A stretch of 58,649 bases of DNA from a virus. Taxonomy: Duplodnaviria > Caudoviricetes. A program made the position numbers and the translations under genes. The notes under the pieces are model-generated. The model did no database searches. It was not told the DNA's origin and saw nothing but the letters and a program-made list of their open reading frames with translations. The stretch is from positions 1 to 58,649 of the IMG/VR virus record IMGVR_UViG_3300032232_001117. One strand, written 5' to 3'. Below, one piece after another: positions 5,435 to 53,498 of this stretch; position 1 is the stretch's first letter, and each line of letters opens with the position of its first letter.

Positions 5435-5508
5435 CCCCGGTGATGCGTCTGGTTGACGCAAGGTGCCTTATAAGCACCCGCAGCAGGGTTCAATTCCCTG
5501 ACCGGGGA
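5435..5508 (+). tRNA. tRNA-Ile (anticodon UAU)
   Basis: Cloverleaf: acceptor CCCCGGT/ACCGGGG, D-stem TGCG/CGCA, anticodon stem GGTGC/GCACC with loop CT-TAT-AA, T-arm CAGGG-TTCAATT-CCCTG, discriminator A; no encoded CCA; G at position 8. Confidence 0.85.
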
Positions 5509-6138
5509 CTAATAGAAAACTTGCAAGTGAAAACCAAGATTATTGATTGCTTCTGCAGTGTCTTCTTCGTCCATGTATTCAGGGTCATAATCTTCACTTA
5601 CGATTTTATAAAGAAGTGCTGGAAAACTTTTATCCCTTAATACATTTACTGCACCGTTTGGATAAACAGTTATTGGCTCAAATACCGCTCTTCTGTTAAG
5701 TCTGTATTTATATGAAGTAGAAACAAGGGTCAATTCAGCGCCGCCTACATCGTCGCCTTCTGCATGAGTTACGGTGACACATTCACTGACTCCTGTTGTG
5801 TCATCAAGAAAAGCCTTAGACAGGTCTAAGCCGCGAGTTTTTTCAATATCTGGAGAACAGTATCCTTCTGCAACCATAGTAATGCTATCTATATTCCAAA
5901 AACCACGAATCATCCTAAGCATTGACGCGCACCTTTGAAGCCTCTCTACCGGAGGGTCTTTCATATGCTTTTGGCTTATTTGACAGATTGTTACTATACG
6001 GCTGTCTTTCCAGCCTATGAAATTAAAAGCAAGGTCTTCACCAATGCCTGATTCTTCAATAAAAATCTTTTTAGCCATTTGTGCAGAAGTGAGCGCTAAC
6101 GCTATTTTTGAAAATTCGTCTGGGTAAAAACCGTCCAT
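5509..6138 (-). CDS. Hypothetical protein
   Basis: 209-aa ORF with ATG start; no motif recognised. Confidence 0.7.
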   Translation of the reverse strand: MDGFYPDEFSKIALALTSAQMAKKIFIEESGIGEDLAFNFIGWKDSRIVTICQISQKHMKDPPVERLQRCASMLRMIRGFWNIDSITMVAEGYCSPDIEKTRGLDLSKAFLDDTTGVSECVTVTHAEGDDVGGAELTLVSTSYKYRLNRRAVFEPITVYPNGAVNVLRDKSFPALLYKIVSEDYDPEYMDEEDTAEAINNLGFHLQVFY

Positions 6139-6780: not shown

Positions 6781-7118
6781 CAGACAATAGAGAACTACCT
6801 ATACCCCTTTTGTCCTTTGACGCTATATGGAAGATGTATCCAGATACAGGATTGACCGAACTTGAAAATCTTGTAGGAGTGCACAAAAAACGCATGTACG
6901 GATGGAGCAAAAACGGATTAACCCTTCAGGATGCCGAACATATTGCTAGCAAAATCGGCCTGCACCCTTCATTTATTTGGGGACCCGAGTACCACATCGC
7001 TGTCTACATGATGGAGATTGTTGAACAAATACGTTATCAACGAAAAATTGATAAGCAAAAATTAAGGAGAAAGGTAATTAACGATGAAAAAAACAAAGTT
7101 AAACAGACTTCCAGGTGA
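6777..7118 (+). CDS. HTH DNA-binding protein
   Basis: HTH-like segment and AEHIASKIGLHPSFIWG motif. Confidence 0.65.
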   Translation: MTDNRELPIPLLSFDAIWKMYPDTGLTELENLVGVHKKRMYGWSKNGLTLQDAEHIASKIGLHPSFIWGPEYHIAVYMMEIVEQIRYQRKIDKQKLRRKVINDEKNKVKQTSR

Positions 7119-7371: not shown

Positions 7372-7375
7372 TTTG

Positions 7376-7448
7376 CGCGTCGGGTAGGATTCGAACCTAC
7401 AGTCTACAGATTAGAAGTCTGTTGCCTTATCCATTTGGCCACCGACGC
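7376..7448 (-). tRNA. tRNA-Arg (anticodon UCU)
   Basis: Minus-strand cloverleaf: GCGTCGG/CCGACGC acceptor, ACAGA-CTTCTAA-TCTGT anticodon arm, GTAGG-TTCGAAT-CCTAC T-arm. Confidence 0.93.
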
Positions 7449-11383: not shown

Positions 11384-11881
11384 GGGATTCTTAGATAAAT
11401 CTTCCCAGAGATTGGGGAAAGTCATTCACTGCCGCACTGCTCCCCCCACGCCTGCGACGCCTCGGAAAAAGTCTCGGGGCTGAGGGGGCTGGAGACAAAC
11501 TAGTAGGCATGCCTTACACCCCCCCCCTTTATCCACAGGCACACCCCCCCTCTGGTCAATAGGCATACCCTATGAGGCATAGGTGATACCTACCCCCCTA
11601 TGGTTATGGTCTCTGGGTACGGCATTGGGTATGACATTGGGTATGGACACATAGCATGCTCTCGGCATGCCATGAGACAGCCCTGAACGCCTCATGAGAC
11701 TACCTATGAGACACCCCATCAGACTGTTCGCATAGTGCCCTTCGTAGTACGCACATAGCAACGAACATACATAGTCATACATCGCATGACCATGACGATA
11801 CAAAACCTCGCATCGTCAATCACACCAATGAAATCGTCAGTCTCTGCGCGCCACCACTGTGTCGTGTTCTACAATGATTCT
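11384..11881. other. ~500-bp non-coding region of unusual composition (possible genome end, packaging site or origin)
   Basis: C/G runs, a DnaA box at 11529-11537, many CATA/TATG/GGCAT words; TACAAT -10 at 11870 for the giant gene. Confidence 0.4.
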
Positions 11882-14800
11882 ATGCCCTTCTCTTATGACA
11901 TCTACCCTGACGAATCATCGCGCGCAAAGCGACGCTTACAAGCGCATTCATCGGAAGGCATAGAGGTCAAGGCATTAGGTTCTAACCTTGGTCAGATAGC
12001 ACGAGGACAAGCAGTGTATGACCCTAACGCATACGACGGTGACGGTGACGGCGTCGTACAGGACAGCACACCCTTTGAGAGACCAGCCGTATTGTCTAAC
12101 ATCGCCTCATTGACAAGGGGGCTCGCAAGTGCCACGGGTAGATGGGGAGATGACTATCAGAACTGGACAGCAGGTAAGACTAACGAGGAGATAGCAGAGG
12201 TAGTAGTACCTGATAACCCTGCTGACCTACTGTCATACATAGCGATACACGCAAGCACTCATGGTCTACCAAGAATCTATGCCAGTGTAGACGACCTTCT
12301 CTCACAGACACGACAATCGTTGCTTGGCGTGGACTTATCACCAGAGACAGTAGCCAATACTCGCAAACTATTAGTAGATACTCTCAATAACAATCCTCAG
12401 ATGAGAGAACTGATAGATAGATTCGGCATACCCCCAATAGTGACACGAAAGAATAAGCCTGAGGTATCAGGGGCAATGACGCAACACATGCTCATGTTCC
12501 TGTCTAAAGAAGGAATAGACCAATACACGGATGGCAAGAGGAGAGGCAAAGGCAGTATGGATACTTCCGTGTTGTCTCGTTTGTTTGGTGACGACATAGA
12601 TAAACTATCTGACCTATTACCAGACTTTGTTTCTGATAAAACAATGGAGAGCACATTCGTACACGAATACGGTCACTACCTATTCTCCTATGCTTCCTAC
12701 AACCACCCTGACCCAGAGGTCAGAGAGATGTTGTATGTCATAAACAACTCACCGTGGAAATGGTTGAGCGACCCAGACAACATAAACCGTTACGACTTAC
12801 CAGAAGAATGGTACGACTTGGCTACCCTTCTCACTAGTGGTCATACAGACATAGACCCAGATGATGAATACAACATAGAGGATTATGTCAAACCTAATGG
12901 AATAGTGCCACCCTCTAAGTACGCCCTAACTTCACCTTCAGAAATGGTTGCTGAACTATTTGCCGAAAGCATCTTAGAACCAAGGACTGATAATAGAAAT
13001 ACAGAAATCCTCCAAACCCTCACGGGTAGAAAAACCACCGACAAAGGATTCGCTTCTGTAACACTCCCTGGCACTAGGTGGTTTGACGATAAGTCAATAG
13101 AGGACATTGTTGATGCTGTTGTTCCATCCACACCAGAGAAAGCACGCGAAGAACTAGAAGCATGGTCGCAGTGGATGTTTGACTTATCAGGACCTGGCTA
13201 CTTTGATGTTGATACAGAGGGAATGACTCCGTCAGAAAAAGTAAACCTAGAACTAAAGCGTCTAAAGTTTCACATTGATAAGAAAATGGCAGGCAACTAC
13301 AACAGAGTCCTTAGAAAGGCTCGTCGTTACAAGGGGGAAGTAAAACCAGAGGAAGTATTTGACTTCTCCGAGGAAGCCCTTATGGGTCTACGGAACATGG
13401 TTTCAGAGGCACTGAACAACAGCCCTGAGTTCCTAAGCCATGTAAGAGACTTTGGTATGCCACCACTATTCGTAACTAAGGGTGAAATAGTTCCTGGCGC
13501 AATCTTTAACGGTAGCACTGGGGCATTGTTTATCACAATGAACAAACTATCCCTAGACCCAACACCTCTAGAAAACCCTGACGATGCGCGCGCAGGAAAA
13601 GGTAGAAAACTTGCTGGCACAGAGTGGTATCTAGAGTCAAACGGAAACTGGAAACCAGAAAGCGTTTTATTCCACGAGTTTGGTCACTTTGTAAACTACT
13701 TGTCCTCAAACCTTCACCCTGATAGGGAAACTCGTTACTTAGCAATGTGGTATTGGCGCATGAGTTGGGGCGAGGGCAACGGGTGGCGTATGAAAAGAAA
13801 GTGGAAGAAGTTTCGTAAAGAAAACCCTGGATACAACTACGACGCTGCTGATAAACGGTGGCTACAAGTTGAGGAAATCAGAGACGCCATAAACAGCAGT
13901 GGGGCGCTTGATTGGGAGAATGGTCCACCTCATGTATTGAGTGAGTACGGACAGCAAAACCCAGCAGAAACATTTGCTGAGGGATACGCAGCATGGGTTA
14001 GTGGTGACGCTGAACAGATGGCTCGTGTCAGCCCTGCCTTGGTAAATGACATAAAGAAGCATGTGACCTTCCCAACTCGCGAGGAAGCAACAACAGAAGT
14101 AGACATGACTCAGGCGATGGAAAGACCTAAGGGTTTTGCCTCACTAAAAATCAAGAGAAACGAAGATGGTACACGCGACCTCGCAGCAGCACTTGATGGA
14201 AGCAGTCCGTCACCCCTTGACGGGTCTAACTGGCTGAAAGACGCAACACCTAGAGAGATAGCGCAAGCGATTGTCCCACGCACAAGAGAAGATGCCGTGA
14301 ACTTGATGCTTATGAATCTACTTGCTGGTAATAGAAATCCAGACGCAATAACAATGGCTGCCATGCGCTCAATCCTATCCAAAATGCTGGATACCGACAT
14401 CTTTGACTTCTCACCAGAAGGCATTTCTCAAATGGAGAAGTGGATTGAGAAGGCGTTAGACGAATCTCCTCAGTTCCTATGGCAGGTGCGCAGATTCGGT
14501 TCTTTGCCCATGATTCCCACGGACAGAAACGCAGTACGTAAGTACAGAGACGCTTTAGAGAACGGTACCCCGATACCTATTCTTTCCATGAATGGCGCAA
14601 GAACAGAAGCCATTACATACCCATTCACAAATACTAACTACAACTTGACGGCAGAACAAGAACTCATGGAAACACTTTATAGTGGTTCTGTTGCCAACCC
14701 AGGCATTATGGGTTACTGCGTAGGAAGCCTATTCATGGTTATGAACATGCATCACCGTGAATGGCGTGGTATTTGGGACCCACAGAAGTCTCCACCACCA

Positions 14801-17800
14801 AAATTTGGAAGAACACGCCGTGTGCTTATGGGTGTTGGTAAAACACCCGGAGAACAACGCCCGTTCCCAGCGTACGACAAGTACGGAAGGCTTCTTGTAT
14901 CAAACTTTGGCACAAGCCTTGAGGGTACAATAATCCACGAGTGGAGTCATGGGTGGTTCTCTAGTCTCTTTGGTCCAAAACAAGGACTTGCAATTATTCC
15001 AGACATCAGAGACGAAGTCGCTCGTAAGAGTCGCATTATGAATCCGGGAACTATTCTTGATAAAAATGACCTTTATCAATTCGGTGGCAAGAGAGATGAT
15101 AGGTACGCATACTTCTTCCCAGACCTTTCGAGAGACGAAGCAGAAGCCCGTGTTGAGTTTGCAAAAGAATTCCTATCGCCTTGGTCACTAACGATTATCC
15201 CCGTATTGGAATCCCCTCGCGATGCAAGTCTTCTCATTCACTTTATGCAGATGGCTGTAAGTAAGACACAATCTGTTTACGGACCAGGTTCACCAGAAGT
15301 AGCAGAAATAACTCAAAGAATGAACGACTACGGTCAGGAACTCATGAATAGAGGGTTCCAAAGAATACGTGCCCTCACGAATGCAGCAAATGTACCAATA
15401 GACGCATTTGCGCATCAGATTGGTGTTGACCCTAACGACCCAGACCAGATGCAGAACATGGCGATGTTCTACGGGTACGAGCCGGGAATCAACCAAGATA
15501 CTTGGCAAGGTCTTGCGCAGGATTTCCCAGACATCTTCGGTGACCCGTCACTTCCTTTTTCCACACTTGCTGGTCAGTACGCACAAAAGAACCCACAAGA
15601 GACATGGGCTGAACTAAACATCCAAATGGCTCAACCTGATTCTGATTACAGAGACGAATACATCACCCCAGAACTGAGAGCAGCACTGTTGTATGTTCTG
15701 GGCGAACACGGCAACCCGTTTGATACAAACATAACCAACATTCCTTGGGAAACACGTGGAGGCTTTGCATCTAGAACAAAAAAGGTAGAACACGCTCGCG
15801 CAACCGTGATAAAGCGCTCATCCAATACGCTTGGTAATGTTGTTTCTTCACGCTCAACCATTGATAACAGAGCACTACGGGTAGTAAAGTCAACACGAGA
15901 CGAGCGTGGTCATACGCGCTTTGAGATTGGTGATTACACATTCACTATCCCTGGTGACAGTTTCATGCCAGACCTTTCAAGCGCATACACCGAGTGGGCA
16001 TCGGAGTCTCACTACGGTATTCAGCAGATGTCACGCATGATGATGGGTGTTCAGAAAAGCAGAAAAAACCCTCTCACCATGCCTGGCAACGCTGAGATTA
16101 ACGTTATTAGTTCAGGAAGACCTGTGACGGAACTAGATGAGAGAATGCTTTCATCCATTAGGTCAACAGCGACAAAGACTAATCGCATACTTGACGAAAT
16201 CAGAGACGGTGACTCCTATTCATCTATGCCTCTCTACCATGCCGTTAATGCAGTAGAACAAGATTCAGACATCCTTAGCGCATCAATCGGCGACACTATC
16301 TCCATGCCTTTATCTTCCTTCTCTCCCAACTTCATCAATCCAGACATGGTAACTAACAGAGGAGGAGGCGATGGTTCTGCCGTTATCAAACTCTCTATGG
16401 GTGCAAAAGTAATGGAGAGCAATCTTCTTGAAAACACAAACCGTAACGGGGAGTGGAGAGATGTTCCGATTGAAAGCATTACGGGTGGCAAATTTAAAGT
16501 TATTTCTAGAGATGAACGAAACGGTATCCCAGTAATAGAGATTGAACACACCGACATATTTGATACAACATCTGGTGAGTGGGTTAATGTTGACCCCAAT
16601 GACGCCATGTCGTCTATCCGTTATGAAGTTCTTACCGACAGAGGCATTAAGAAACTTGAGAAACTCAATAAGCGTCGCACGATTCTTGGAGAAGAAAACC
16701 CCGAATATGGGAAAATAACTGAAGAGATTGACGCAGTCGCAAACGATGTTGTTCGCAGTATGTTCGGTGGCAACACCGACCCAGTACTGCCTGTTCTTGG
16801 CATGTCAAGAGAAGACAGAATGAAGTTTGAAGAGCAGATGGATTTCCTATCAGCAATACCTGTTTCCTCAATGGATAAGCGTGGATTGCCAGGATTTGCA
16901 TCTGTAAGTGACGCCAATATGGCGTTTAGTCGCAGAATCACCCCAGAGCGTCGTGTTACTAAGTCAGCCATACGCATGCTCCAAGAGAACCGTGAATACA
17001 TCGCAGACAGAATGATTCCCGGTACTAATCGTGAAATTCTTGATGATGTATGGGTAGACAAAATGCTTGACAAACTCAACAATGGCGAGATAACTCACGC
17101 TGACGGCATGAACATAATGAATGTAATCATGGATTTAATCGGTGACAGAATAAAGAGAGACCCATCATCGCGTGATGCTACTGACGGGGATGTGTACCAC
17201 TACCAGAAACTCGGCAAGAGACTGCGCAGAGCAATGACGGCAGAAATAACAAGAGAAGAAACTCTAAATCTTAGTAAAGCATCAGGATTTGCCTCAACCT
17301 CGTCTAGAACCAATACAAAAATCTCTGAACCATTCAACCCAACCGTCATCTCAACCGAAGCCAGTGACGCTGAATGGGGTCAATTTGAGTCAAGTAGAAC
17401 TATTGTTCAGGCTGTTGTGTACGACATTGACGGCGAGAAGGTTGTGTTTGGTGTTGAGGAAAGACACGGGCTTGATACGACTGGAATCAAAGTCATTCCG
17501 CTTAACCCCTACGAGATTACCGAACTAGACCGCGACAGTGAAGAAGGCCAAGAGATGGCTCTTGATTGGCTCTACGCAAACCTTGCTGCTTACGAAGACG
17601 CGGATTACAACAATAGAAACGATACAGAAATCAGTGCTCTCCTTTATTCTGCTACTAAAGGTGATAAAGAATCAAAGAAAAAGTTTAAAGAATACGCCGA
17701 AAAAGGTCGTGAAATAGCACAACAAAGACGTCAAGAGGCGCTTGATGAGGAAAGCAAAAGGATTGACTCAAGAATGTCTGACCCTCAAGTCGCTTGGGAT

Positions 17801-20800
17801 GTTAAGTATATGCAAGAGAGACTTGCATATACGAGAAAGAAGAAAAAAGATGGTTACGTATCGGCTCCGTCTAAAGAAGAAATTGATGATGCAAAGATTA
17901 CTCCAGACAACTTAGTTCTAGTTCGTTGGAGCGAGTTCCCACCAGAGTATGACGCCGACGGCAATGTCATTCTTCAGCCCGCCAGCGAGTATGTAGCAGT
18001 CGATAGACAAACAATGCATTTCACGTTGAATCACTCGGTTGAAGAGCATATGTTCTGGAACGACGGCGATGGTGAAGGCTACCTAATTATGACCACGCTT
18101 GGTGATGTGTTAGAAGCAAACGGGACTGAGTCATTAGACAATCTCTACGGCGTAGATACATACTTCACTCCCAAGCCAGGCGAGGGATTAAAACTCCCTA
18201 AATCAAAAGTTATCAAAGTCTCTAAGGGTGAAGATAGAAAAGCAATCACCGCAAGAGTTGTCGAAGAAGAGTTTGATTCTTTTGCAGTTACTGGAGGACC
18301 TCACTACACGGGTACCGCAGGTTTCGACGATACGGTCAGAATTGTTGCAAGAGACTTAGGAATCGTTCCCGGAGGTCTTCACGCTAATAGACCTCATCAC
18401 TTACTTGAACAAATGAATAACTATTTAAGTGATTCTGGTTCAAAAGAACGAGACCTTCGACCAGAAAAAAACAATAGTGGTCCCTATGTTGAAGACATTG
18501 CAGAGATGGAAAAGAACGCGCTACTAAGACTTGCCGATAGAAAGCACGCTCCATGGAGTGGCGTAAACGAAAGTCGTGTCGCAAATCCAAAGGGCAGTTT
18601 AGCATCTGTATCTCGCTCAAGAACACGGGCAGATGAACGGTTGGCTAGTTTAAATAACGCAGAAGAAATAAAAGTTATTGATTCTGTTCAAAAAAGAATT
18701 GGCTTTGCTTCTCGCACAGACGCTGTTAACCCAAGAGGTAGAACCGTTGAAGAAGTAGCAAAAGAACTTGAATTAACAGAAGAAGAGAAGAGAATACTTG
18801 CTAAGTTTCTTCCCAATTTTGACAACGTTGAGGATTATCAGTTCCATCCTTCAATAACACCAGAACAAAAACGTAAAATTATTGATTCCATACGTATTCG
18901 TGTCGATGACGGTATTCCGTATATAACAATAGATGGCAACCCGTTCTTGATGGATGAAATTCCAGACAAGAGAGACTGGTCAACCGTACTCGCTCCTTCT
19001 GATGAACAAATCAAAACAGTAAGTGACCTATTATTAAAACTAGGAAGACAAGCAGGGTTCTCCACTTTTGAAAGACCCAACAATCTGGGGTTCACTTTAG
19101 AAGAAGAAGACAGAGCAAGAGAGCACATAAAACTTAATATTGTTGCTTTCAGTCAGTGGGCGATGGACCTATATAGAGAAATAGGCAACAAATACCCAGT
19201 CTTAGACGACAGCACGCTTGAAAGAAGCAATTTTCCTGACGTTCCAGGTGGAATGATTCACTACACCGGCATGGGTTTGTACTTCAACGCCCTTAGTGGT
19301 TTATTGCAAAGAGGAATACTTGACTACTACGGTGAAGAAGACTTCTTAAACGCTCATGACCTTTGGGGACATATAGCAACTGGTCGCAGTTTTGACAGAC
19401 ACGGTGAATGGGCAAACGCTTTAGCAATGTGGTCAATGATGGATAGGTGGGCAAAGGAAAACAATATATCTGAATCCGACTTAATACGCACGAAGTTGCG
19501 TTGGATGACAGGATTAGAATTTAACCGTTTTTCTTTTAGAAACTTTGCTGAGATTCCTGAAGACATGACGGATGCTGAAAGAATAGAATTGCAAACTTCT
19601 GTATACAGGGTGCTTAATAATGGCATGGCTACCGACGACGAGATTAAAGAAGTACTTGCCTTACTTGACCATGGGCGTGTTGCTCAGTCAGAAAACGCCA
19701 AGAAGTTGACTGACGCTACCGAAGGAGAAAAGGCTGAAATAGTTAAAACCGATGTCGTTAGAACAACACTTCTTGATAGAACCAAAAAAAGATTAGGTTT
19801 TGCTAGTGCTTCAAATACACGCAGGATTGTCGACATGGACCTCGGAGATTCTGGCTCAGAAACTGGTGAGGTTATTGCTGAAAAAATGGGCCTCACGGGT
19901 AAGGCTGCAAGAATAGCGAAAGAAGCATTCCAGCGCACTCTTGAATCAATATCAAATGGCACTTTCAGAAAGTACAAGATGGCTAAAGGTGTTGATGAGC
20001 ACAAGTCCCGACTTCTTGACTCAATACGCATAGTAATCAGCGCAGACGATGTTCCGATGATTATGGCTGACCCACACCCAGTTTTCTTTAGGCTTTTAAC
20101 AGATAGAAGAGACTGGTCAAAGATTGAGATTCCAAGCAATGCGACCATTAACGAGTTTGTAAAGAGGCTAAAAGAAGGAAACAATCCACTAGCCAGAAGA
20201 GGCAACCAACAACGCACTGACGAGAACACTGGTTATCAGAAATTTAATAAATGGGCGTTTGAGAAACTACTACCACTAATAAATGCAACAGAAAGACAAG
20301 AGTACGGCGAAAGACCCAATCCTGGAGAATTGGATTTAGATGACGAATTAATGGTTTTGTCTGGAAACGAATCATGGGCTTCACTCTATATTGGTTCTCT
20401 ATTTGACGGAGAAAGTGCTATAGGCAACAGCCTTATTGAAGCATTTGATGCACTGCACGAAGCAGTAGGTCATGTTGCAATTGGACGAGGGTTTGATAGA
20501 CACGGTGAATACGCAAATGCTCTTGCAGTACTTTCATTATTTAGACAACCAGAACTGCAAGAATTGCTCACAAAAGGAGAGATTCAAAAGTTGCTAGGGA
20601 AGATAATGGCTGACTACCTGGCGGGTCCTATCGGTCTTGCTACAAGAGAACAGAGCAACGTGCTTGAAGATGCGCTAAACGCTGCAAATCATGACATCAA
20701 AATGAGTCCAACTGGCGAACTTATGCAACTGATTACAGACTATGAAGGTGACCTTTTTGAACTTATAGACCTTTTAGAATCCGAAATAGATAAGACTCCA

Positions 20801-22174
20801 GCACTCAAGGAGGACGGTTCACCACTTGAGTCCCGTCCTAGTGGATTTGCATCACAAAGCAGACGTTCTATTGACCGTGTGAAACCAGAAGTACGTGACG
20901 AGATAGCAATTGCTGATGCCGTACACCTTTCCCCAAACAAGAAAACTTCTAAACCAGCAGGGTTTGCCTCAAGGGCAGTGGACTTCAAACAGGGTACGCA
21001 TAATATTGAAGTTAAAGACAATGCACCAGAAGCAGACATGTTTACTGCTGACGATAAAGGTCGGACTATCCAGGTGTACGTGCCAGAAGGCGTAGAGGTT
21101 ATAAACCCACGAACAGGCAAAAAGATGATTCTTGACTCACCTGATGCTTCAACAGAATTTGTTGCTGACGGTGGCAACTTATCTGAAGTTCCAGATGTGC
21201 ATTTGAATTCAGCCATCCTCAACAATGCAGAAGATGTTCCTGGAGAACGCAGAAGCGGATGGAGATTCTCAAAACCAGGCGGAAGATTTGAGTGGGTAGG
21301 TGGCGGAGGAGGCGCAACTGGGATGATGCGTCTTAGGGATAGAACAACAAAGGCTTTATTCGGCATAAAGTTTGAGGCCTCATTTATGGCACCAGAAGAC
21401 GATAGGTATGGAGAATGGACATCACCAATTCCAATTACCGACTCCAGCGCTGCTGACGCTCCAGAAGGAATAATAAACGAGGTTGTTGGTCAAGCAGTAC
21501 TTCAAGCGCTTGGCTTTGAGCCCGGGGCAACAAGAATAGTCAAGAGAAGTCCTCGTGGTGCTGGGGACAAAAATGGCGGAGCATCGATGCTAGTGGATTT
21601 TGTTCAAAATAGACACGGGAGAGTACGTGACGCTGACGACTATGCGCCTATGGCTGTACGAAAAGAATCAGCAATAAGAATGCTCCTTCTTGATGCAATA
21701 CTTGGAAATAGAGACAGAAATCCAAATAACTTTTTAACATCTATTCAGAGTGACGGAACAAGGGTTATCGTCCCCATAGACCACGGAGCCATCATGGCTA
21801 GAAGGTTGAATCAGTTTGATTTGAGAGGGGCAGTTTCTTCACAGATAGGATGGAACGCTATTGAGTACGAGAAGATTCTTGATGATATGACGCGAGCAGA
21901 ATTGATAGCAATCATGCCCGGCATTCTTGCTGACTACAGAGCCGACATAGAACAAAAGAAAACAGATATCGTAAAGGCAATGAATGAAGCGGTCGACAAA
22001 CTGATTTCGCTTCACGAAGAAGGTGAATGGCCTGATATGGAATACCTTGAAAAACTATATGAAGAATACGACAATAGGCTTAAGCCGGTTTTTTCAAGAC
22101 TAGATGAAGTAGCGTCAATGTCAGATGAGGACTTTTTGGACTTGTTTAAATATTTAAGATTTGGATACAAATAA
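11882..22174 (+). CDS. Giant multidomain (polyvalent) protein, ~3430 aa: 3 HExxH metallopeptidase modules, ART-like module, 2 H[DE]xxGH modules, C-terminal HipA/PI3K-like kinase
   Basis: HEYGH 12662, HEFGH 13673 and HEWSH 14936, each with a downstream Y...P.E..AE; HDLWGH 19355 and HEAVGH 20456; DAILGNRDRNPNN...IDHG at 21692-21787; leaderless ATG at 11882. Confidence 0.85.
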   Translation: MPFSYDIYPDESSRAKRRLQAHSSEGIEVKALGSNLGQIARGQAVYDPNAYDGDGDGVVQDSTPFERPAVLSNIASLTRGLASATGRWGDDYQNWTAGKTNEEIAEVVVPDNPADLLSYIAIHASTHGLPRIYASVDDLLSQTRQSLLGVDLSPETVANTRKLLVDTLNNNPQMRELIDRFGIPPIVTRKNKPEVSGAMTQHMLMFLSKEGIDQYTDGKRRGKGSMDTSVLSRLFGDDIDKLSDLLPDFVSDKTMESTFVHEYGHYLFSYASYNHPDPEVREMLYVINNSPWKWLSDPDNINRYDLPEEWYDLATLLTSGHTDIDPDDEYNIEDYVKPNGIVPPSKYALTSPSEMVAELFAESILEPRTDNRNTEILQTLTGRKTTDKGFASVTLPGTRWFDDKSIEDIVDAVVPSTPEKAREELEAWSQWMFDLSGPGYFDVDTEGMTPSEKVNLELKRLKFHIDKKMAGNYNRVLRKARRYKGEVKPEEVFDFSEEALMGLRNMVSEALNNSPEFLSHVRDFGMPPLFVTKGEIVPGAIFNGSTGALFITMNKLSLDPTPLENPDDARAGKGRKLAGTEWYLESNGNWKPESVLFHEFGHFVNYLSSNLHPDRETRYLAMWYWRMSWGEGNGWRMKRKWKKFRKENPGYNYDAADKRWLQVEEIRDAINSSGALDWENGPPHVLSEYGQQNPAETFAEGYAAWVSGDAEQMARVSPALVNDIKKHVTFPTREEATTEVDMTQAMERPKGFASLKIKRNEDGTRDLAAALDGSSPSPLDGSNWLKDATPREIAQAIVPRTREDAVNLMLMNLLAGNRNPDAITMAAMRSILSKMLDTDIFDFSPEGISQMEKWIEKALDESPQFLWQVRRFGSLPMIPTDRNAVRKYRDALENGTPIPILSMNGARTEAITYPFTNTNYNLTAEQELMETLYSGSVANPGIMGYCVGSLFMVMNMHHREWRGIWDPQKSPPPKFGRTRRVLMGVGKTPGEQRPFPAYDKYGRLLVSNFGTSLEGTIIHEWSHGWFSSLFGPKQGLAIIPDIRDEVARKSRIMNPGTILDKNDLYQFGGKRDDRYAYFFPDLSRDEAEARVEFAKEFLSPWSLTIIPVLESPRDASLLIHFMQMAVSKTQSVYGPGSPEVAEITQRMNDYGQELMNRGFQRIRALTNAANVPIDAFAHQIGVDPNDPDQMQNMAMFYGYEPGINQDTWQGLAQDFPDIFGDPSLPFSTLAGQYAQKNPQETWAELNIQMAQPDSDYRDEYITPELRAALLYVLGEHGNPFDTNITNIPWETRGGFASRTKKVEHARATVIKRSSNTLGNVVSSRSTIDNRALRVVKSTRDERGHTRFEIGDYTFTIPGDSFMPDLSSAYTEWASESHYGIQQMSRMMMGVQKSRKNPLTMPGNAEINVISSGRPVTELDERMLSSIRSTATKTNRILDEIRDGDSYSSMPLYHAVNAVEQDSDILSASIGDTISMPLSSFSPNFINPDMVTNRGGGDGSAVIKLSMGAKVMESNLLENTNRNGEWRDVPIESITGGKFKVISRDERNGIPVIEIEHTDIFDTTSGEWVNVDPNDAMSSIRYEVLTDRGIKKLEKLNKRRTILGEENPEYGKITEEIDAVANDVVRSMFGGNTDPVLPVLGMSREDRMKFEEQMDFLSAIPVSSMDKRGLPGFASVSDANMAFSRRITPERRVTKSAIRMLQENREYIADRMIPGTNREILDDVWVDKMLDKLNNGEITHADGMNIMNVIMDLIGDRIKRDPSSRDATDGDVYHYQKLGKRLRRAMTAEITREETLNLSKASGFASTSSRTNTKISEPFNPTVISTEASDAEWGQFESSRTIVQAVVYDIDGEKVVFGVEERHGLDTTGIKVIPLNPYEITELDRDSEEGQEMALDWLYANLAAYEDADYNNRNDTEISALLYSATKGDKESKKKFKEYAEKGREIAQQRRQEALDEESKRIDSRMSDPQVAWDVKYMQERLAYTRKKKKDGYVSAPSKEEIDDAKITPDNLVLVRWSEFPPEYDADGNVILQPASEYVAVDRQTMHFTLNHSVEEHMFWNDGDGEGYLIMTTLGDVLEANGTESLDNLYGVDTYFTPKPGEGLKLPKSKVIKVSKGEDRKAITARVVEEEFDSFAVTGGPHYTGTAGFDDTVRIVARDLGIVPGGLHANRPHHLLEQMNNYLSDSGSKERDLRPEKNNSGPYVEDIAEMEKNALLRLADRKHAPWSGVNESRVANPKGSLASVSRSRTRADERLASLNNAEEIKVIDSVQKRIGFASRTDAVNPRGRTVEEVAKELELTEEEKRILAKFLPNFDNVEDYQFHPSITPEQKRKIIDSIRIRVDDGIPYITIDGNPFLMDEIPDKRDWSTVLAPSDEQIKTVSDLLLKLGRQAGFSTFERPNNLGFTLEEEDRAREHIKLNIVAFSQWAMDLYREIGNKYPVLDDSTLERSNFPDVPGGMIHYTGMGLYFNALSGLLQRGILDYYGEEDFLNAHDLWGHIATGRSFDRHGEWANALAMWSMMDRWAKENNISESDLIRTKLRWMTGLEFNRFSFRNFAEIPEDMTDAERIELQTSVYRVLNNGMATDDEIKEVLALLDHGRVAQSENAKKLTDATEGEKAEIVKTDVVRTTLLDRTKKRLGFASASNTRRIVDMDLGDSGSETGEVIAEKMGLTGKAARIAKEAFQRTLESISNGTFRKYKMAKGVDEHKSRLLDSIRIVISADDVPMIMADPHPVFFRLLTDRRDWSKIEIPSNATINEFVKRLKEGNNPLARRGNQQRTDENTGYQKFNKWAFEKLLPLINATERQEYGERPNPGELDLDDELMVLSGNESWASLYIGSLFDGESAIGNSLIEAFDALHEAVGHVAIGRGFDRHGEYANALAVLSLFRQPELQELLTKGEIQKLLGKIMADYLAGPIGLATREQSNVLEDALNAANHDIKMSPTGELMQLITDYEGDLFELIDLLESEIDKTPALKEDGSPLESRPSGFASQSRRSIDRVKPEVRDEIAIADAVHLSPNKKTSKPAGFASRAVDFKQGTHNIEVKDNAPEADMFTADDKGRTIQVYVPEGVEVINPRTGKKMILDSPDASTEFVADGGNLSEVPDVHLNSAILNNAEDVPGERRSGWRFSKPGGRFEWVGGGGGATGMMRLRDRTTKALFGIKFEASFMAPEDDRYGEWTSPIPITDSSAADAPEGIINEVVGQAVLQALGFEPGATRIVKRSPRGAGDKNGGASMLVDFVQNRHGRVRDADDYAPMAVRKESAIRMLLLDAILGNRDRNPNNFLTSIQSDGTRVIVPIDHGAIMARRLNQFDLRGAVSSQIGWNAIEYEKILDDMTRAELIAIMPGILADYRADIEQKKTDIVKAMNEAVDKLISLHEEGEWPDMEYLEKLYEEYDNRLKPVFSRLDEVASMSDEDFLDLFKYLRFGYK

Positions 22175-33544: not shown

Positions 33545-33585
33545 GTATCCATTATGCCTTGTAAGGGTAGAAATAACAACATTAG

Positions 33586-33618
33586 TTATCCACAAATTTG
33601 TCCACAGGTTTATCCACA
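33586..33618 (+). promoter_or_regulatory. Three tandem DnaA boxes
   Basis: TTATCCACA 33586, TTGTCCACA 33598, TTATCCACA 33610 (12-bp period). Confidence 0.8.
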
Positions 33619-33922
33619 GGTACACGAAGAAAGCCCGGGCCGGCCGCAGCCCCGCGTCGTACAGCGCTTCCCGAACCTATTACGGTGGCGGAAAGGAAAC
33701 AGGAATGAAAATCTAGACGCCTCACGACGGGGCTGGCGCACGCACAGAAAAAAGGGAAAAGAAAACCCCCAACGATGAAAGGTTCGTTGAGGGTTTTCCT
33801 TGTAGTCTTCCCAATCGCCGAAGAACAAAAAACTCAGTCTTTGGTTTACCACTATTAGTAAAATTACTAACTACCTTCAGTATGCCGTCTAAGAAATAAA
33901 ACGACAACCCGTAAAGTTTTGA

Positions 33923-35893: not shown

Positions 35894-35944
35894 ACTTCAT
35901 TATGCCTTGTAAGGGTAGGAATGACAACATTTATTCCAAGAAAG

Positions 35945-35977
35945 TTATCCACAGATTTATCCACAGGTTGTGGACAC
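35945..35977. promoter_or_regulatory. DnaA-box cluster
   Basis: TTATCCACA 35945 and 35957; inverted TGTGGACAC at 35969. Confidence 0.8.
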
Positions 35978-39152: not shown

Positions 39153-39205
39153 ATTTACCTCCTCCCCCCCAGTATGCCGTATAAGAGTAAAAAACACAAC
39201 ATTAG

Positions 39206-39226
39206 TTATCCACAGATTTTTCCACA
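39206..39226 (+). promoter_or_regulatory. Two tandem DnaA boxes
   Basis: TTATCCACA 39206, TTTTCCACA 39218. Confidence 0.75.
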
Positions 39227-39608
39227 GGCGCACCCAATAACCAACGCACGCGCGCGATGCCGGGGCTATCGCCTGCGTGCGTTTATGTCTACACAGCGAA
39301 AGCACGCTTCGGCTCTCTCGTCCTCGTTATCACACAGCATTACGCCCGACGCCTGAGCCCCGGTCAGTTCGTAAAGACGCACATACCTTGCGTGTTCTGT
39401 TTCGTATGGTTTTCCTGTCAGTTTGTCTATCATTCTTTTTCCTCATAATCAGGGAAGTAGCAGTCCCTGTTGATACAGCCACCTTGCGACACACAGTCGT
39501 CATAGTAGGCACAGCCTGAACCACCAAGTCCTGAGTGTTCCGTCGTCTCGGGGCTCCTACCCGAACGCTTGCCCACCTTGTAGGCGACGAGGTTAGAGAT
39601 AAGCCCCA

Positions 39609-44478: not shown

Positions 44479-44506
44479 AATTCATTATGCCGTGTAAGCG
44501 ACAACC

Positions 44507-44836
44507 TCACAACCTCGCCCTGTAACTCTTTAGAGCCTCTTCGTAAGTTGAGTAATACTCGCCATTAGCGAATGACCAACCCTCAGGTCGGGCGACTAGT
44601 GTCCACACAATGAATGGGTGAATAATGGTTTCGTCCTTGCCGTATCCGTCTCGCTCACAAAAAACATTCCAAGTGGCGTAGGTGTCACCCTTTACTCGCT
44701 CACGGATTTTTTTGAACTCCACGATACGGACAAACTCATCTTCGGTGTACTCCATTGGGAGTTTCTCACAGATAACCCAATACTCGGGTTCTGTTGTTTC
44801 GTTGCTAAATAGCACTGCTTCTACTTGTGTTGTCAT
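44507..44836 (-). CDS. Hypothetical protein
   Basis: Leaderless ATG after a promoter element. Confidence 0.7.
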   Translation of the reverse strand: MTTQVEAVLFSNETTEPEYWVICEKLPMEYTEDEFVRIVEFKKIRERVKGDTYATWNVFCERDGYGKDETIIHPFIVWTLVARPEGWSFANGEYYSTYEEALKSYRARL

Positions 44837-44859
44837 ACTTTCATTATGCCTTGTAGTAA

Positions 44860-45150
44860 CTAAGACAACAACCCCTCGTTCATAATTTTTTTGACAGAGT
44901 AGAACAACAACTGCTCGTTCATAATTTCTTTGACCGAGTAGAAGTAGTCCCGAGTTTCTTCCCAAGTTGCTTCTGACCAGTCAAGTCCACCGTATTCAGC
45001 GTCAATGAGTTGCTTCGCCTCAGTTGCGTCACACTCCATAACAACCATCACGGAGACAAGTTGTGAGGGTGAGTAGCCAGCGTGCCGGGGCTCCGTCTCC
45101 AGTACCTCGTAATACTTCTTGCGACAGTCGTTGTCGTACTTAGTTTCCAT
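44860..45150 (-). CDS. Hypothetical protein with duplicated C-terminus
   Basis: FYSVKEIMNEQLL / FYSVKKIMNEGLL. Confidence 0.65.
   Translation of the reverse strand: METKYDNDCRKKYYEVLETEPRHAGYSPSQLVSVMVVMECDATEAKQLIDAEYGGLDWSEATWEETRDYFYSVKEIMNEQLLFYSVKKIMNEGLLS
44865..44942. repeat. 39-bp tandem duplication
   Basis: 44865-44903 and 44904-44942 are near-identical. Confidence 0.85.
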
Positions 45151-45338
45151 TAGAGTCCTGCCTTTTCTGCGAGGCTTGCGAGGTCTTTCCCTTGCTTCAT
45201 GAGTGCTTCTAACTCGTTTAGTGCTTTCTCAAACTCTTCATCAGTTTTTTCCCACGCATCGTTGAGGTCGTCTACTGCGTGAGGAATAAGCCTGAGGACT
45301 GTTTTCATTTTTGTGATTAGTTCGTTGTTTTCGTTCAT
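45150..45338 (-). CDS. Small helical protein
   Basis: Leaderless ATG after a promoter element. Confidence 0.7.
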   Translation of the reverse strand: MNENNELITKMKTVLRLIPHAVDDLNDAWEKTDEEFEKALNELEALMKQGKDLASLAEKAGL

Positions 45339-45369
45339 AGTTCAGTATGCCTTGTAAGCCGTAAGAACA

Positions 45370-45611
45370 CAACCTCTTGCGAAACACATAACTGAGGTTG
45401 CGAACCTCGCCACTCCTAGCCCGTCGGCAGGCTTGCATTACTAAGTGAAGAGGACGGATGTACGGAGCGAGGACGGGTACACCAGAGGGAGTAGGGAGTC
45501 TAGAACAAACGACTATCGTGGGTAGAGCCTTATCACCGACAGAGCCTTATCTGTGCAGAGTAAGCGCACCGAAGTGGGTGCTATGTATTTCGCAAGAGGT
45601 TGCCCTCTCAC
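45370..45611 (-). ncRNA. Putative ~240-nt structured non-coding RNA
   Basis: Has its own promoter element (45617); 21-bp terminal stem 45582-45602/45370-45390 with a U.G wobble only on the minus strand; cUUCGg hairpin; no ATG start. Confidence 0.6.
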
Positions 45612-45810
45612 ACTTCCATTGTGCCTTGTAAGGGTCACGAACACAACTTGGTGAGAAAGATTTACCCTAAGTTTCTGTACGCAACTATGTAGCACCGTAC
45701 CGATAGTAGGGCGCAGATGACCTGTAGCCCCGTCGGCAACGGCAGTAAAACTGGGTAGGAAAATGCCAGCCCAAGCAGGATTTGCCTGCCTACCGTCTTG
45801 TCTGAAACTG

Positions 45811-46404
45811 TCACGGTGACGGAAAGCCTTCCACGAGTTTGTTTAGGTCGCCTTCGTTCATACAAAAAGTTCGGAAAGTTCTAAAAACAAAAGGCACGAG
45901 TCCTTCGGGTGGTTCATCGGCATCCATCGGTTCATCCCAAACAGGCATACCGTCATCGCCGTAGTGATACAGCATCGTACGGCAAGCAGACTCGCCTTCC
46001 CATGTGAACACAGTAACGATTACGCCTTCTTTCACTTTGGATGAAGGGTTGGTCTTGAAGTCCCGTTCAAGAGAGCCACGCTCAAAAGCGTCAAGCGTTT
46101 CTACTTCACCAACAGTTTCTGTATCGCCACCGTTTGCGTATCCCTCAACGACATAAGCAAGCCAGTCCCAACGCATTGTTTCGTTCTTTTCTTGTAGCCC
46201 ACCGATTATCTTATTGAGAAGAATCGGCAAGTTCTCTGTTGGGTGTCCGTCAAGCGTGTCGGCGATAACAAAAGGCATCCCATTATAGTCAGTTCCCAAG
46301 ATGAATGGAATACCATCGTCGGGGCCCCCATTCTGTAAGCAGAGGTCGGTCTTGTATTCCCGACACTCACGACTGATACCGTCAAGAATGTCCGTCAGTT
46401 TCAT
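45811..46404 (-). CDS. Hypothetical protein
   Basis: 197-aa ORF; ATGA overlap with the upstream gene. Confidence 0.7.
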   Translation of the reverse strand: MKLTDILDGISRECREYKTDLCLQNGGPDDGIPFILGTDYNGMPFVIADTLDGHPTENLPILLNKIIGGLQEKNETMRWDWLAYVVEGYANGGDTETVGEVETLDAFERGSLERDFKTNPSSKVKEGVIVTVFTWEGESACRTMLYHYGDDGMPVWDEPMDADEPPEGLVPFVFRTFRTFCMNEGDLNKLVEGFPSP

Positions 46405-53404: not shown

Positions 53405-53498
53405 GTCTGAAACATTTACGGTGGCGGAAAGGCCAGAGGTCGAGAAGACTTTTTCATTTTTTCTGTTTTTTTACGCAGCGCCGCCGGCCACGTGCAAC

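Follow-up and report, generated by a model that had tools for sequence, protein, structure and literature searches.

The closest described counterparts of the element considered here come from phages of mycobacteria. The published account describes very abundant and stable early non-coding RNAs (ncRNAs) of unknown function in mycobacteriophages L5, D29 and StarStuff, transcribed from the promoter Pleft over a region of about 500 bp at the right end of the genome (PMC5712189). The element lies at positions 45360–45611, minus strand, of a 58.6-kb virus record (IMGVR_UViG_3300032232_001117; CheckV completeness estimate 39%); "the window" below means this whole stretch of DNA. It would give a folded RNA of about 190–240 nt, and it is, with high confidence, a member of a family of structured ncRNAs. 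The family is new, in that no Rfam family matches it and no paper on it was found, while the general kind, an abundant early ncRNA of an actinobacterial phage, has its precedent in L5 and D29. The proposal developed below, that the RNA is excised from a longer transcript and acts in trans by binding a partner, is on balance probable when taken as a whole chain.

Comparison with catalogued RNAs gave little. Searched against Rfam 15 at the gathering score, the whole window yielded only a transfer RNA (tRNA) elsewhere; the element with its flanks had no match at E values up to 10, and family members L121 and L299 had only chance matches of 9.7–13.1 bits, where the gathering scores are 38–50. Literature searches likewise found no description of the RNA family.

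The case for an RNA is carried mainly by the way in which its bases change between relatives. An earlier reading of this DNA, made from the letters alone (the original prediction), had proposed a structured non-coding RNA from the minus strand and had named covariation among homologues as a check. In a 14-member alignment fitted to the structure of the covariance model, 92.2% of 969 cells form a pair, compared with 42–47% when the 3' partners are slid by 1–3 columns, and 57 of the 76 pairs are altered on both sides. Scored for covariation, the structure attains 0.594; the slid controls attain 0.09–0.12, and none of 500 shuffles equals the structure. The strand cannot be picked from the single-sequence fold, as this beats shuffles in both directions (z of −3.05 on the minus strand and −3.79 on the plus strand). 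The aligned cells do favour one strand, with 69 G.U cells and 19 A.C cells, and the stalk described below is stabler on the promoter's strand in 12 of the 14 members (the exceptions are L117 and L108). Compensatory pairing, a promoter and RNA-library contigs, the last being weak on strand and ends, are thus all found for this element, and with the compensatory changes, the excess of G.U and the contigs on the element, the proposal of a minus-strand structured RNA has held.

The two ends of the element form a stalk. Pairing of the ends over 21 bp had been predicted, and the arms are real: inverted repeats of 21 nt at 45582–45602 (minus strand) and 45370–45390 (plus strand) match with one mismatch, and two such matches appeared in none of 100 shuffles. 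As had also been noticed, the single position that is not a Watson-Crick pair is U.G if the RNA is read from the minus strand, but A.C if it is read from the opposite one. The full extent is greater than first stated, with 24 contiguous pairs and 7 more that reach the predicted +1, where GUGAGAG at the predicted start pairs with UUCUUAC at 45366–45360. The 5' strand of the stalk (45580–45610, minus; GUGAGAG and CAACCUCUUGCGAAAUACAUAGC) makes 31 pairs with 45392–45360 at −50.5 kcal/mol, against a shuffled mean of −19.3. Its 3' strand (45360–45392, minus) covers the −35 sequence and the spacer of the next promoter; the overlap of the 3' arm of the inverted repeat with that −35 sequence (GGTTGT, 45374–45369) is as the original prediction had it.

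Pairing of this kind is general in the family. In an alignment-free comparison, the 48-nt flanks of all 14 full-length members pair with each other (28–36 pairs, −42.6 to −56.1 kcal/mol), and in each member the pairing beats 100 of 100 shuffles. The sequences of the arms are unrelated between lineages though the pairing persists, and in the aligned stalk helix (helix 1) 21 of 24 pairs covary. The innermost pair, C45580–G45392, is invariant in all 14 members.

Within the stalk, every two-module member has the same order of parts: (N)AUAG-CA at the stalk's inner end, a segment termed P2, two copies of UAAGGCUCU, an apical hairpin and two motifs resembling CCG(U/C)CCUC; the second of these, motif B2, is followed by CCGACGGG in 10 of the 14 members, by the 3' strand of P2 and then by a 3' hairpin. 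In the window, motif A1 (45541–45551, minus) and motif A2 (45524–45534, minus) both read GAUAAGGCUCU, and motif B1 (45469–45476, minus) and motif B2 (45450–45457, minus) both read CCGUCCUC. These are, together with CUCCCU, the words that had been recorded as repeated, and each does occur twice. UAAGGCUCU is present at A1, and A2 is likewise present, in 14 of 14 aligned members, and the B1 motif is CCG(U/C)CCUC-like in as many.

The rod starts with the P2 helix, continues through two tandem copies of an invariant internal loop in which GAUAAGGCUCU faces CCGYCCUC, and ends in the apical hairpin; the two halves of the loop are 5' GA-UAA-GG-CUCU and 5' CC-GYCC-UC. Pair 74–204 joins the nucleotide just before UAAGG to the one that follows CCGUCC; it is A-U in 12 of the members, L099 having C-G at this place and L108 having U-A. 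Since this pair between A1 and B2 changes together, A1 faces B2 and the module is read, from aligned sequences, as an asymmetric internal loop with 5' UAA facing 5' GYCC between the GA:UC and GG:CC helices and CUCU on the far side. A mini-hairpin within motif A (AGA-UAAGGC-UCU) was rejected, as L099 and L108 change the base 5' of UAAGG together with its partner in B2. Members L299 and L318 have one A motif (corresponding to A2), one hairpin and one B motif, which argues that the module is the conserved unit and that the RNA of the window is a tandem version of it. All 8 pairs of the rod helix next after P2 covary.

Two parts of the core are less settled. The P2 segment (45566–45581, minus) can form a local hairpin, GCACC-CACUUC-GGUGC, or it can pair over a long range, CCACUUC (45577–45571) with GGAGUGG (45416–45410). 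The long-range helix (helix 2) covaries at 6 of 7 pairs, and the local hairpin covaries too, its loop being UUCG in the window but GCAA in both L121 and L100. The CAC-UUCG-GUG hairpin of the original prediction is therefore present, but the same bases compete in a long-range pairing, and given that both pairings covary, the segment could act as a switch or be part of a pseudoknot. The other part is CCGACGGG (45420–45427, minus), which falls within a small hairpin or bulge of the rod's 3' strand and is absent from the short L104/L118/L144/L125 group; a C-G/U.G/U-A series read by eye suggests that it could pair with B1 (CCCGUC). The 3' hairpin beyond it, GAGGUU-CGC-AACCUC (45394–45408, minus; helix 13, 4 of 5 pairs covarying), had been predicted at its GAGGUU/AACCUC stem and stands as described, at the place where the core joins the stalk; it was flagged as terminator-like from its U-rich tail. 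A reading of this hairpin as a tRNA-like T-arm was discarded, its loop lacking conservation, as was a helix GGUGUAC/GUACAUC seen in the single-sequence fold, which is not kept in L064 or L025.

The apical domain (45478–45523, minus) is variable, ranging from 20 to 57 nt across members, and in the window it contains the CUCCCU words. Its stem (helix 9) covaries at 6 of 8 pairs. A self-complementary hexamer stands in the apical loop of every member: UCUAGA in the window (45504–45499), L064, L025, L125 and L318; CCUAGG in L099 and L299; ACUAGU in L117; GCUAGC in L104, L118 and L144; CCCGGG in L121, L108 and L100; and CCGCGG in L141. Self-complementarity would here have been kept by only two double changes, which is suggestive only.

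Besides the window, at least 20 contigs of viral or metagenome origin carry members of the family. Exact-word scans, together with a neighbouring protein, gave the close lineages L064, L025/L029/L092 and L093 (99% identical to the window), and a protein-alignment search gave a fourth, divergent lineage, L099. A wider search took the two-word pattern TAAGGCTCT-N5-12-TAAGGCTCT and then nhmmer, whose profile was used to look for further members, and the covariance model R1. The model, built from 5 close sequences, recovered 14 full-length and mutually distinct members at E values of 1e-10 to 1e-78; L299/L316 and L319 are weaker or truncated members, and L318 is a one-module form. Two copies occur on 7 contigs, and one of these (L118, L125, L318) has a one-module copy as well. 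Between the window and L025, 221 of 244 columns of the element are identical; the downstream protein of L025-type phages is 58–59% identical to that of the window, their upstream DNA does not align, and their promoter consensus and neighbours are unlike those of the window.

Outside this set, no match to a cultured phage was found when window positions 44800–46400 and the L121 and L104 members were compared by blastn with 50,697 phage records, and the two neighbouring proteins, as single queries, found no relatives. Cellular genomes were covered by three exact-pattern scans of one genome for each of 185,579 species, which returned at least 120, 8 and 6 stretches; among those listed, neither nhmmer nor R1 recognized a member (best 11 bits at E 0.061, and 8 bits). 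In 151 sampled genomes of the phylum of G002 and three more, a single match of 18.4 bits lacked the motifs when read; the cellular negative holds for the genomes searched and is no proof of absence. A 19-mer match in a genome contig labelled Atribacteria (L094) was set aside as a chance occurrence inside unrelated coding-looking sequence.

The element occupies a promoter slot in an array of early genes. The repeated promoter of the window reads GGTTGT-N9-10-CTTACAAGGCATAATG, with 24 copies in one repeat family of the repeat search; a regular expression for its core matched 38 times, and after those at 352, 22604 and 57965 were discarded as unrelated, 35 copies remained. At 31 of the 35 an ATG stands 5–6 nt past the −10 (for 4 of the 31 it was assigned by eye, where the script had given an earlier, out-of-frame ATG), so that the series is an array of leaderless small genes. 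The leaderless ATG is missing at four copies, those at 33892, 39184 and 42647 and the RNA's own (45631–45618). The copies span 30.8–53.2 kb of the window, on the minus strand up to 47.2 kb and on the plus strand beyond. Neither 42647–42634 (minus) nor 39184–39171 (minus) has a leaderless ATG, and one of them sits 87 nt upstream of the next copy; at 39184, GGAGGAGG and then an ATG make up a start led by a Shine-Dalgarno (SD) sequence. Relatives of the L025 type have another spacer (CCYTACTAYC) and the same layout of the promoter array.

The RNA's own promoter (45618–45648, minus) consists of a −35-like AGTTGT/TTGTGT (TTGTGT at 45646–45641), a 17-nt spacer with CTTACAAGG and a −10 of CACAAT at 45623–45618; it does not score in a generic sigma-70 scan. 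That no ATG follows it, as originally noted, is correct, with the refinement that a GTG (45609–45611, minus), the predicted transcript start, stands in exactly the register of the ATGs in the other copies (repeat family D2). This GTG opens a 32-codon open reading frame (ORF) at 45513–45611, which exists as first listed, and conservation of this ORF in place of the stem would have spoken for a gene. The opposite is seen. The frame encodes 32 amino acids (aa) both in the window and in L064; a 1-nt deletion shortens it to 9 aa in L025/L029, and in L099, which has a 2-nt difference, the GTG leads into another frame of 37 aa. Single-nucleotide indels are scattered elsewhere in the element, none of the frames stays open in every lineage, and the stem is kept by double compensatory changes. 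The element is not a conserved protein gene. In L086, at 6782–6970 (plus), a leaderless GTG heads a 62-aa ORF with a zinc-ribbon-like CxC...CPxC pattern, and the opening bases of this ORF (GTGAGTAGGCAA) are similar to those of the RNA (GTGAGAGGGCAA). Leaderless GTG starts thus seem to be used in this phage group, and the GTG at 45611 may merely mark the start of the transcript.

Eighteen freshwater or lake metatranscriptome runs from 17 studies contain 5–10% of the sampled words of a 2-kb stretch around the element, which itself makes up 12% of that stretch; contigs were placed for four runs (four studies), and the small word shares of the other 14 runs and the empty flanks in four runs carry no evidential weight. 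Four of the five contig pieces from the four runs fall inside the element, at 45381–45580 (X2, depth 22), 45392–45580 (X4), 45410–45580 (X1) and 45426–45578 (X7); the fifth (X1), at 44500–44673, lies outside it. Three of the four stop at 45580, the stalk's innermost pair on the 5' side of the RNA, and one at 45578. With C45580–G45392 as the innermost pair, the contig 45392–45580 is exactly the part enclosed by the stalk, and the shared boundary at 45580 is a weak hint of a processed end.

These observations suggest how the RNA could be made. Because the stalk includes the first transcribed bases and reaches the spacer of the next promoter, the primary transcript must read into the next cassette, and a transcript from the RNA's own promoter would accordingly run on past the element. 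The stalk would then be a processing stalk, as in ribosomal RNA (rRNA) precursors. RNase III needs about two helical turns of duplex; the 28–36 pairs in all 14 members exceed the near-perfect flank duplex of at least about 20 bp expected of a stalk for this enzyme, and a duplex kept in length and not in sequence suits a double-strand-specific RNase. Such an RNase, of the RNase III type, together with trimming would free a stable core of about 190–200 nt, from 45580 to about 45392 or 45381. The contig ends are in keeping with excision and subsequent trimming; a simple single cut would not place the 5' end at the stalk's inner edge. The core would be a trans-acting platform, possibly a loop-loop (kissing) dimer, on which one or two invariant internal-loop modules bind in stoichiometric amounts a protein or another ligand that comes from the host or from the phage. 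Stoichiometric binding is suggested jointly by the invariance of the loops, the existence of forms with one module and with two, the presence of two or three copies in a genome and the probable abundance of the RNA, and a catalytic or base-pairing role would fit these features less well.

Several points weigh against excision and action in trans. Assembled contigs give no strand, true ends or expression level, and RNA libraries can contain DNA; the 5' boundary, moreover, lies at the inner end of the stalk and not inside it, as a simple RNase III cut predicts. The pair counts lean towards the structure to which the alignment was fitted, the helices made of invariant motif bases never vary and are thus unproven by covariation, and P2 has its two competing pairings. 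A 6-nt palindrome arises by chance in 26–50% of shuffled apical segments, so that the idea of a dimer depends on where the hexamer sits, at the apex, and on the two double changes that turn CUAG into CCGG and CCGG into CGCG. Member L099 directly precedes an SD-led gene without a new promoter, an arrangement that makes a role in cis possible, and L096, whose downstream protein is 76% identical, has no copy within 10 kb on either side, from which the RNA would seem dispensable for some relatives. Trans action and a bound partner we only infer.

The alternative that survives best is an element acting in cis in early transcription units, one that insulates or processes read-through, or serves as leader, antiterminator or stabiliser of the downstream gene, and yields no free RNA. 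We consider it unlikely, though with a weight that should not be overlooked. The stalk's 3' strand invariably reaches up to or into the next promoter, the element forms the 5' leader of the SD-led gene in L099, the same conserved protein lies downstream in four lineages, and a terminator of its own is not convincing, a 3' hairpin with a U-rich tail being present in some lineages only. Yet the downstream gene varies, being a 62-aa ORF in the window, a 96-aa homologue in L099 and the gene of the MTTQ protein in both L025 and L125, and the new promoter that follows most members makes it independent of the RNA's transcript. Invariant internal loops and two or three copies at different places in a genome suit a product better than a local signal, and the restriction of RNA-library contigs to the interior of the element, weak as it is, goes the same way.

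An RNA of the 6S or Ms1 type, a rod whose open internal loops bind the host RNA polymerase and redirect transcription, is improbable. Some actinobacteria use Ms1 instead of 6S, the host here is an actinobacterium, and the rod closed by the 5' and 3' ends, the conserved bubbles and the probable abundance and stability are all of this kind; GAUAAGG also resembles, to the eye, the −10 region GATAAGGTG of one L025 promoter. The motif nevertheless has no T at position −7 of a −10 element, and the element has two small asymmetric loops (one in L299 and L318) in place of one large central bubble. No Rfam family came near its gathering score at E up to 10, three divergent members included, and it is not obvious what use sequestration of polymerase would be to a phage with 35 sigma-70-like promoters.

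Still less probable is the idea, put forward in the original prediction, that pyrimidine-rich words resembling the anti-SD sequence make the RNA a base-pairing sponge that masks SD sequences of host messengers and spares the leaderless messengers of the phage. The leaderless starts at 31 of 35 promoters of the window phage and the CCUCCU in the B motifs of L121, L108, L100 and L141 would suit it. Against this, the RNA is found in phages with SD-led early genes as well: the members in L117, L121, L108, L100 and L141 adjoin genes with SD leaders of the GAAAGGA type, and in L099 the SD-led gene follows directly, so that blocking of SD-led messengers is not supported. Nor do the words themselves bear it out, the invariant part being CCG(U/C)CCUC and not CCUCC; CCUCCU occurs in some lineages only and CUCCCU is not conserved beyond the nearest ones. 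The B motifs, further, lie opposite the A motifs within the rod, where the words are engaged (pair 74–204), and so do not lie free as single strands. A likeness of motif B to the 3' tail of 16S rRNA, noticed by eye, was dropped. In a wider sense the RNA may still be a decoy or sponge. In one form of this idea, the excised core, joined through its palindromic apical loop as a symmetric kissing dimer or a higher multimer, would present two to four identical and invariant loop pockets and be a sponge for a host defence protein or a small immune signalling molecule early in the infection of actinobacteria; this is distinctly unlikely, somewhat less so than the 6S-like reading, and if true it would make the RNA a counterpart of the phage protein sponges that act against signalling-based defence.

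There is only a very slight chance that the element functions as DNA, whether as an origin or a region of iterons, as a promoter or priming site in the form of a single-strand DNA hairpin, or as a set of palindromic protein-binding sites. Leading regions of conjugative elements carry DUF932, DUF4314 and DUF3846 families and contain folded single-strand promoters; members of these three families are neighbours here, and the element has inverted and direct repeats and palindromes like restriction sites (TCTAGA, CCTAGG, CCCGGG and others). The 69 G.U to 19 A.C cells and the stronger stalk on the transcribed strand in 12 of 14 members point to RNA instead, a promoter stands ahead of every member read, RNA-library contigs cover the element, and the clusters of DnaA boxes lie elsewhere. 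Least credible, and already contradicted, is a leaderless gene for a 32-aa protein, or a functionless miniature mobile element that has spread recently: despite a GTG at the leaderless start position, the like of which heads the real-looking ORF in L086, and a terminal inverted repeat resembling that of a miniature inverted-repeat transposable element, the ORF is broken or frame-shifted in two of four lineages, the window has no copy of the arm sequence beyond this pair, the arms are unrelated between lineages, and the boundaries match transcription signals, not target-site duplications.

The excised, trans-acting RNA that we favour would belong to a phage of Actinobacteria. A WhiB domain (Pfam, E 6.9e-13) and an Rpf-like transglycosylase domain (Pfam) are found in the window, which we take to be marks of Actinobacteria and their phages; the host is actinobacterial, and the leaderless starts fit this as well. 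Other genes of the window encode a class II ribonucleotide reductase, a primase-helicase, an SNF2 helicase and proteins with DUF932, DUF4314 and DUF3846. In four lineages, one and the same MTTQ-type protein is encoded downstream of the RNA. A protein partner was sought among the linked genes and given up, as the shared early proteins reflect the common descent of the phages; the linked proteins have no informative Pfam or PHROG names. A small hydrophobic ORF at 45662–45865 (minus) ends about 50 nt before the RNA's promoter and is conserved, with this placement, in L095, L098 and L099.

Further features were seen elsewhere in the window. At 33755–33873 (minus) the promoter copy 33892–33879 is followed by about 115 nt without an ORF and by a hairpin and U-run (AACCCUCAACGA...UCGUUGGGGGUUUUCUUUU), a candidate small RNA; R1 found no match in this slot. 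Clusters of words like TTATCCACA, presumably the DnaA-box consensus, stand immediately upstream of three promoter copies at 33582–33621, 35941–35968 and 39202–39229. Another word, CTTTCCRCCACCGTA, occurs beside G+C-rich hairpins in 6 copies between 31029 and 42021 in the minus-strand sense and at 53409 and 55636 in the plus sense, as well as in L025 at about 1385–1400, upstream of an SD-led small ORF, and may be a second promoter or regulatory class. A giant ORF of 3462 aa spans 11786–22174 (plus), and tRNA-Ile(TAT) and tRNA-Arg(TCT) lie at 5435–5509 and 7375–7448.

Phage ncRNAs are few and mostly unexplained, and here there is a covariation-supported family with a modular invariant core. It occurs, often twice in a phage, in numerous uncultured phages of actinobacteria and shows up in lake metatranscriptomes of many studies, so that the RNA is probably abundant in infections of freshwater Actinobacteria, a dominant bacterial group of lakes. 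It offers for study an RNA of about 190 nt with an internal-loop module of about 25 nt, a possible dimerisation loop and a possible processing stalk, and it indicates that promoter slots without genes in the early arrays of phages can be mined for RNAs.

How, then, does the element compare with RNAs already described? With the early RNAs of L5, D29 and StarStuff it shares an actinobacterial phage, an early-type promoter and the lack of a conserved ORF, and to these can be added great abundance and stability and an unknown function, as reported for those RNAs; the passages on them mention no stalk or tandem internal-loop architecture such as that of the element (PMC5712189). There is no homology at the level of sequence: the right end of L5 (50500–52297) gave with R1, filters off, a best score of 7.6 bits over 32 nt. 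With 6S and Ms1 the likeness lies in a size of about 200–300 nt, a rod closed by its ends, conserved unpaired regions and, as proposed for the element, stability and processing from a precursor. They differ in their one large central bubble flanked by long helices; the consensus of the element has instead small asymmetric loops, either one or two of them (3 x 4 nt and a CUCU side), with a covarying helix in between, and the element is encoded by a phage and has no Rfam match.

The stalks of rRNA precursors and the RNase III sites between T7 early genes have in common with the element that flanks pair over more than two helical turns, so that a double-strand RNase could cut out what they enclose; in the element this would be an RNA of about 190 nt, and cleavage is suggested by contig ends only. 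Among RNAs that multimerise through loop-loop contacts, phi29 packaging RNA (pRNA), the retroviral dimerisation initiation site and the OLE, ROOL and GOLLD RNAs resemble the element in its self-complementary apical hexamer and its helix of 5' and 3' ends, and pRNA, GOLLD and ROOL are encoded by phages, as the element is. It differs from this group in having no Rfam match to Phage_pRNA or the others and in a dimer that is so far predicted from sequence, and, loop palindrome notwithstanding, it sits among small genes of a large actinophage (58.6 kb being 39%) that is not phi29-like. Phage RNA decoys can also be compared with the element. RNA anti-CRISPRs, which mimic repeats, and pseudo-ToxI antitoxin repeats act by titrating a host protein; like the element they are small phage RNAs, placed among early genes, in which repeated units raise valency. 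No likeness of the element to a CRISPR or ToxI repeat was found, though no search aimed at it was made, and the unit repeated in the element is a two-stranded internal loop, not a hairpin.

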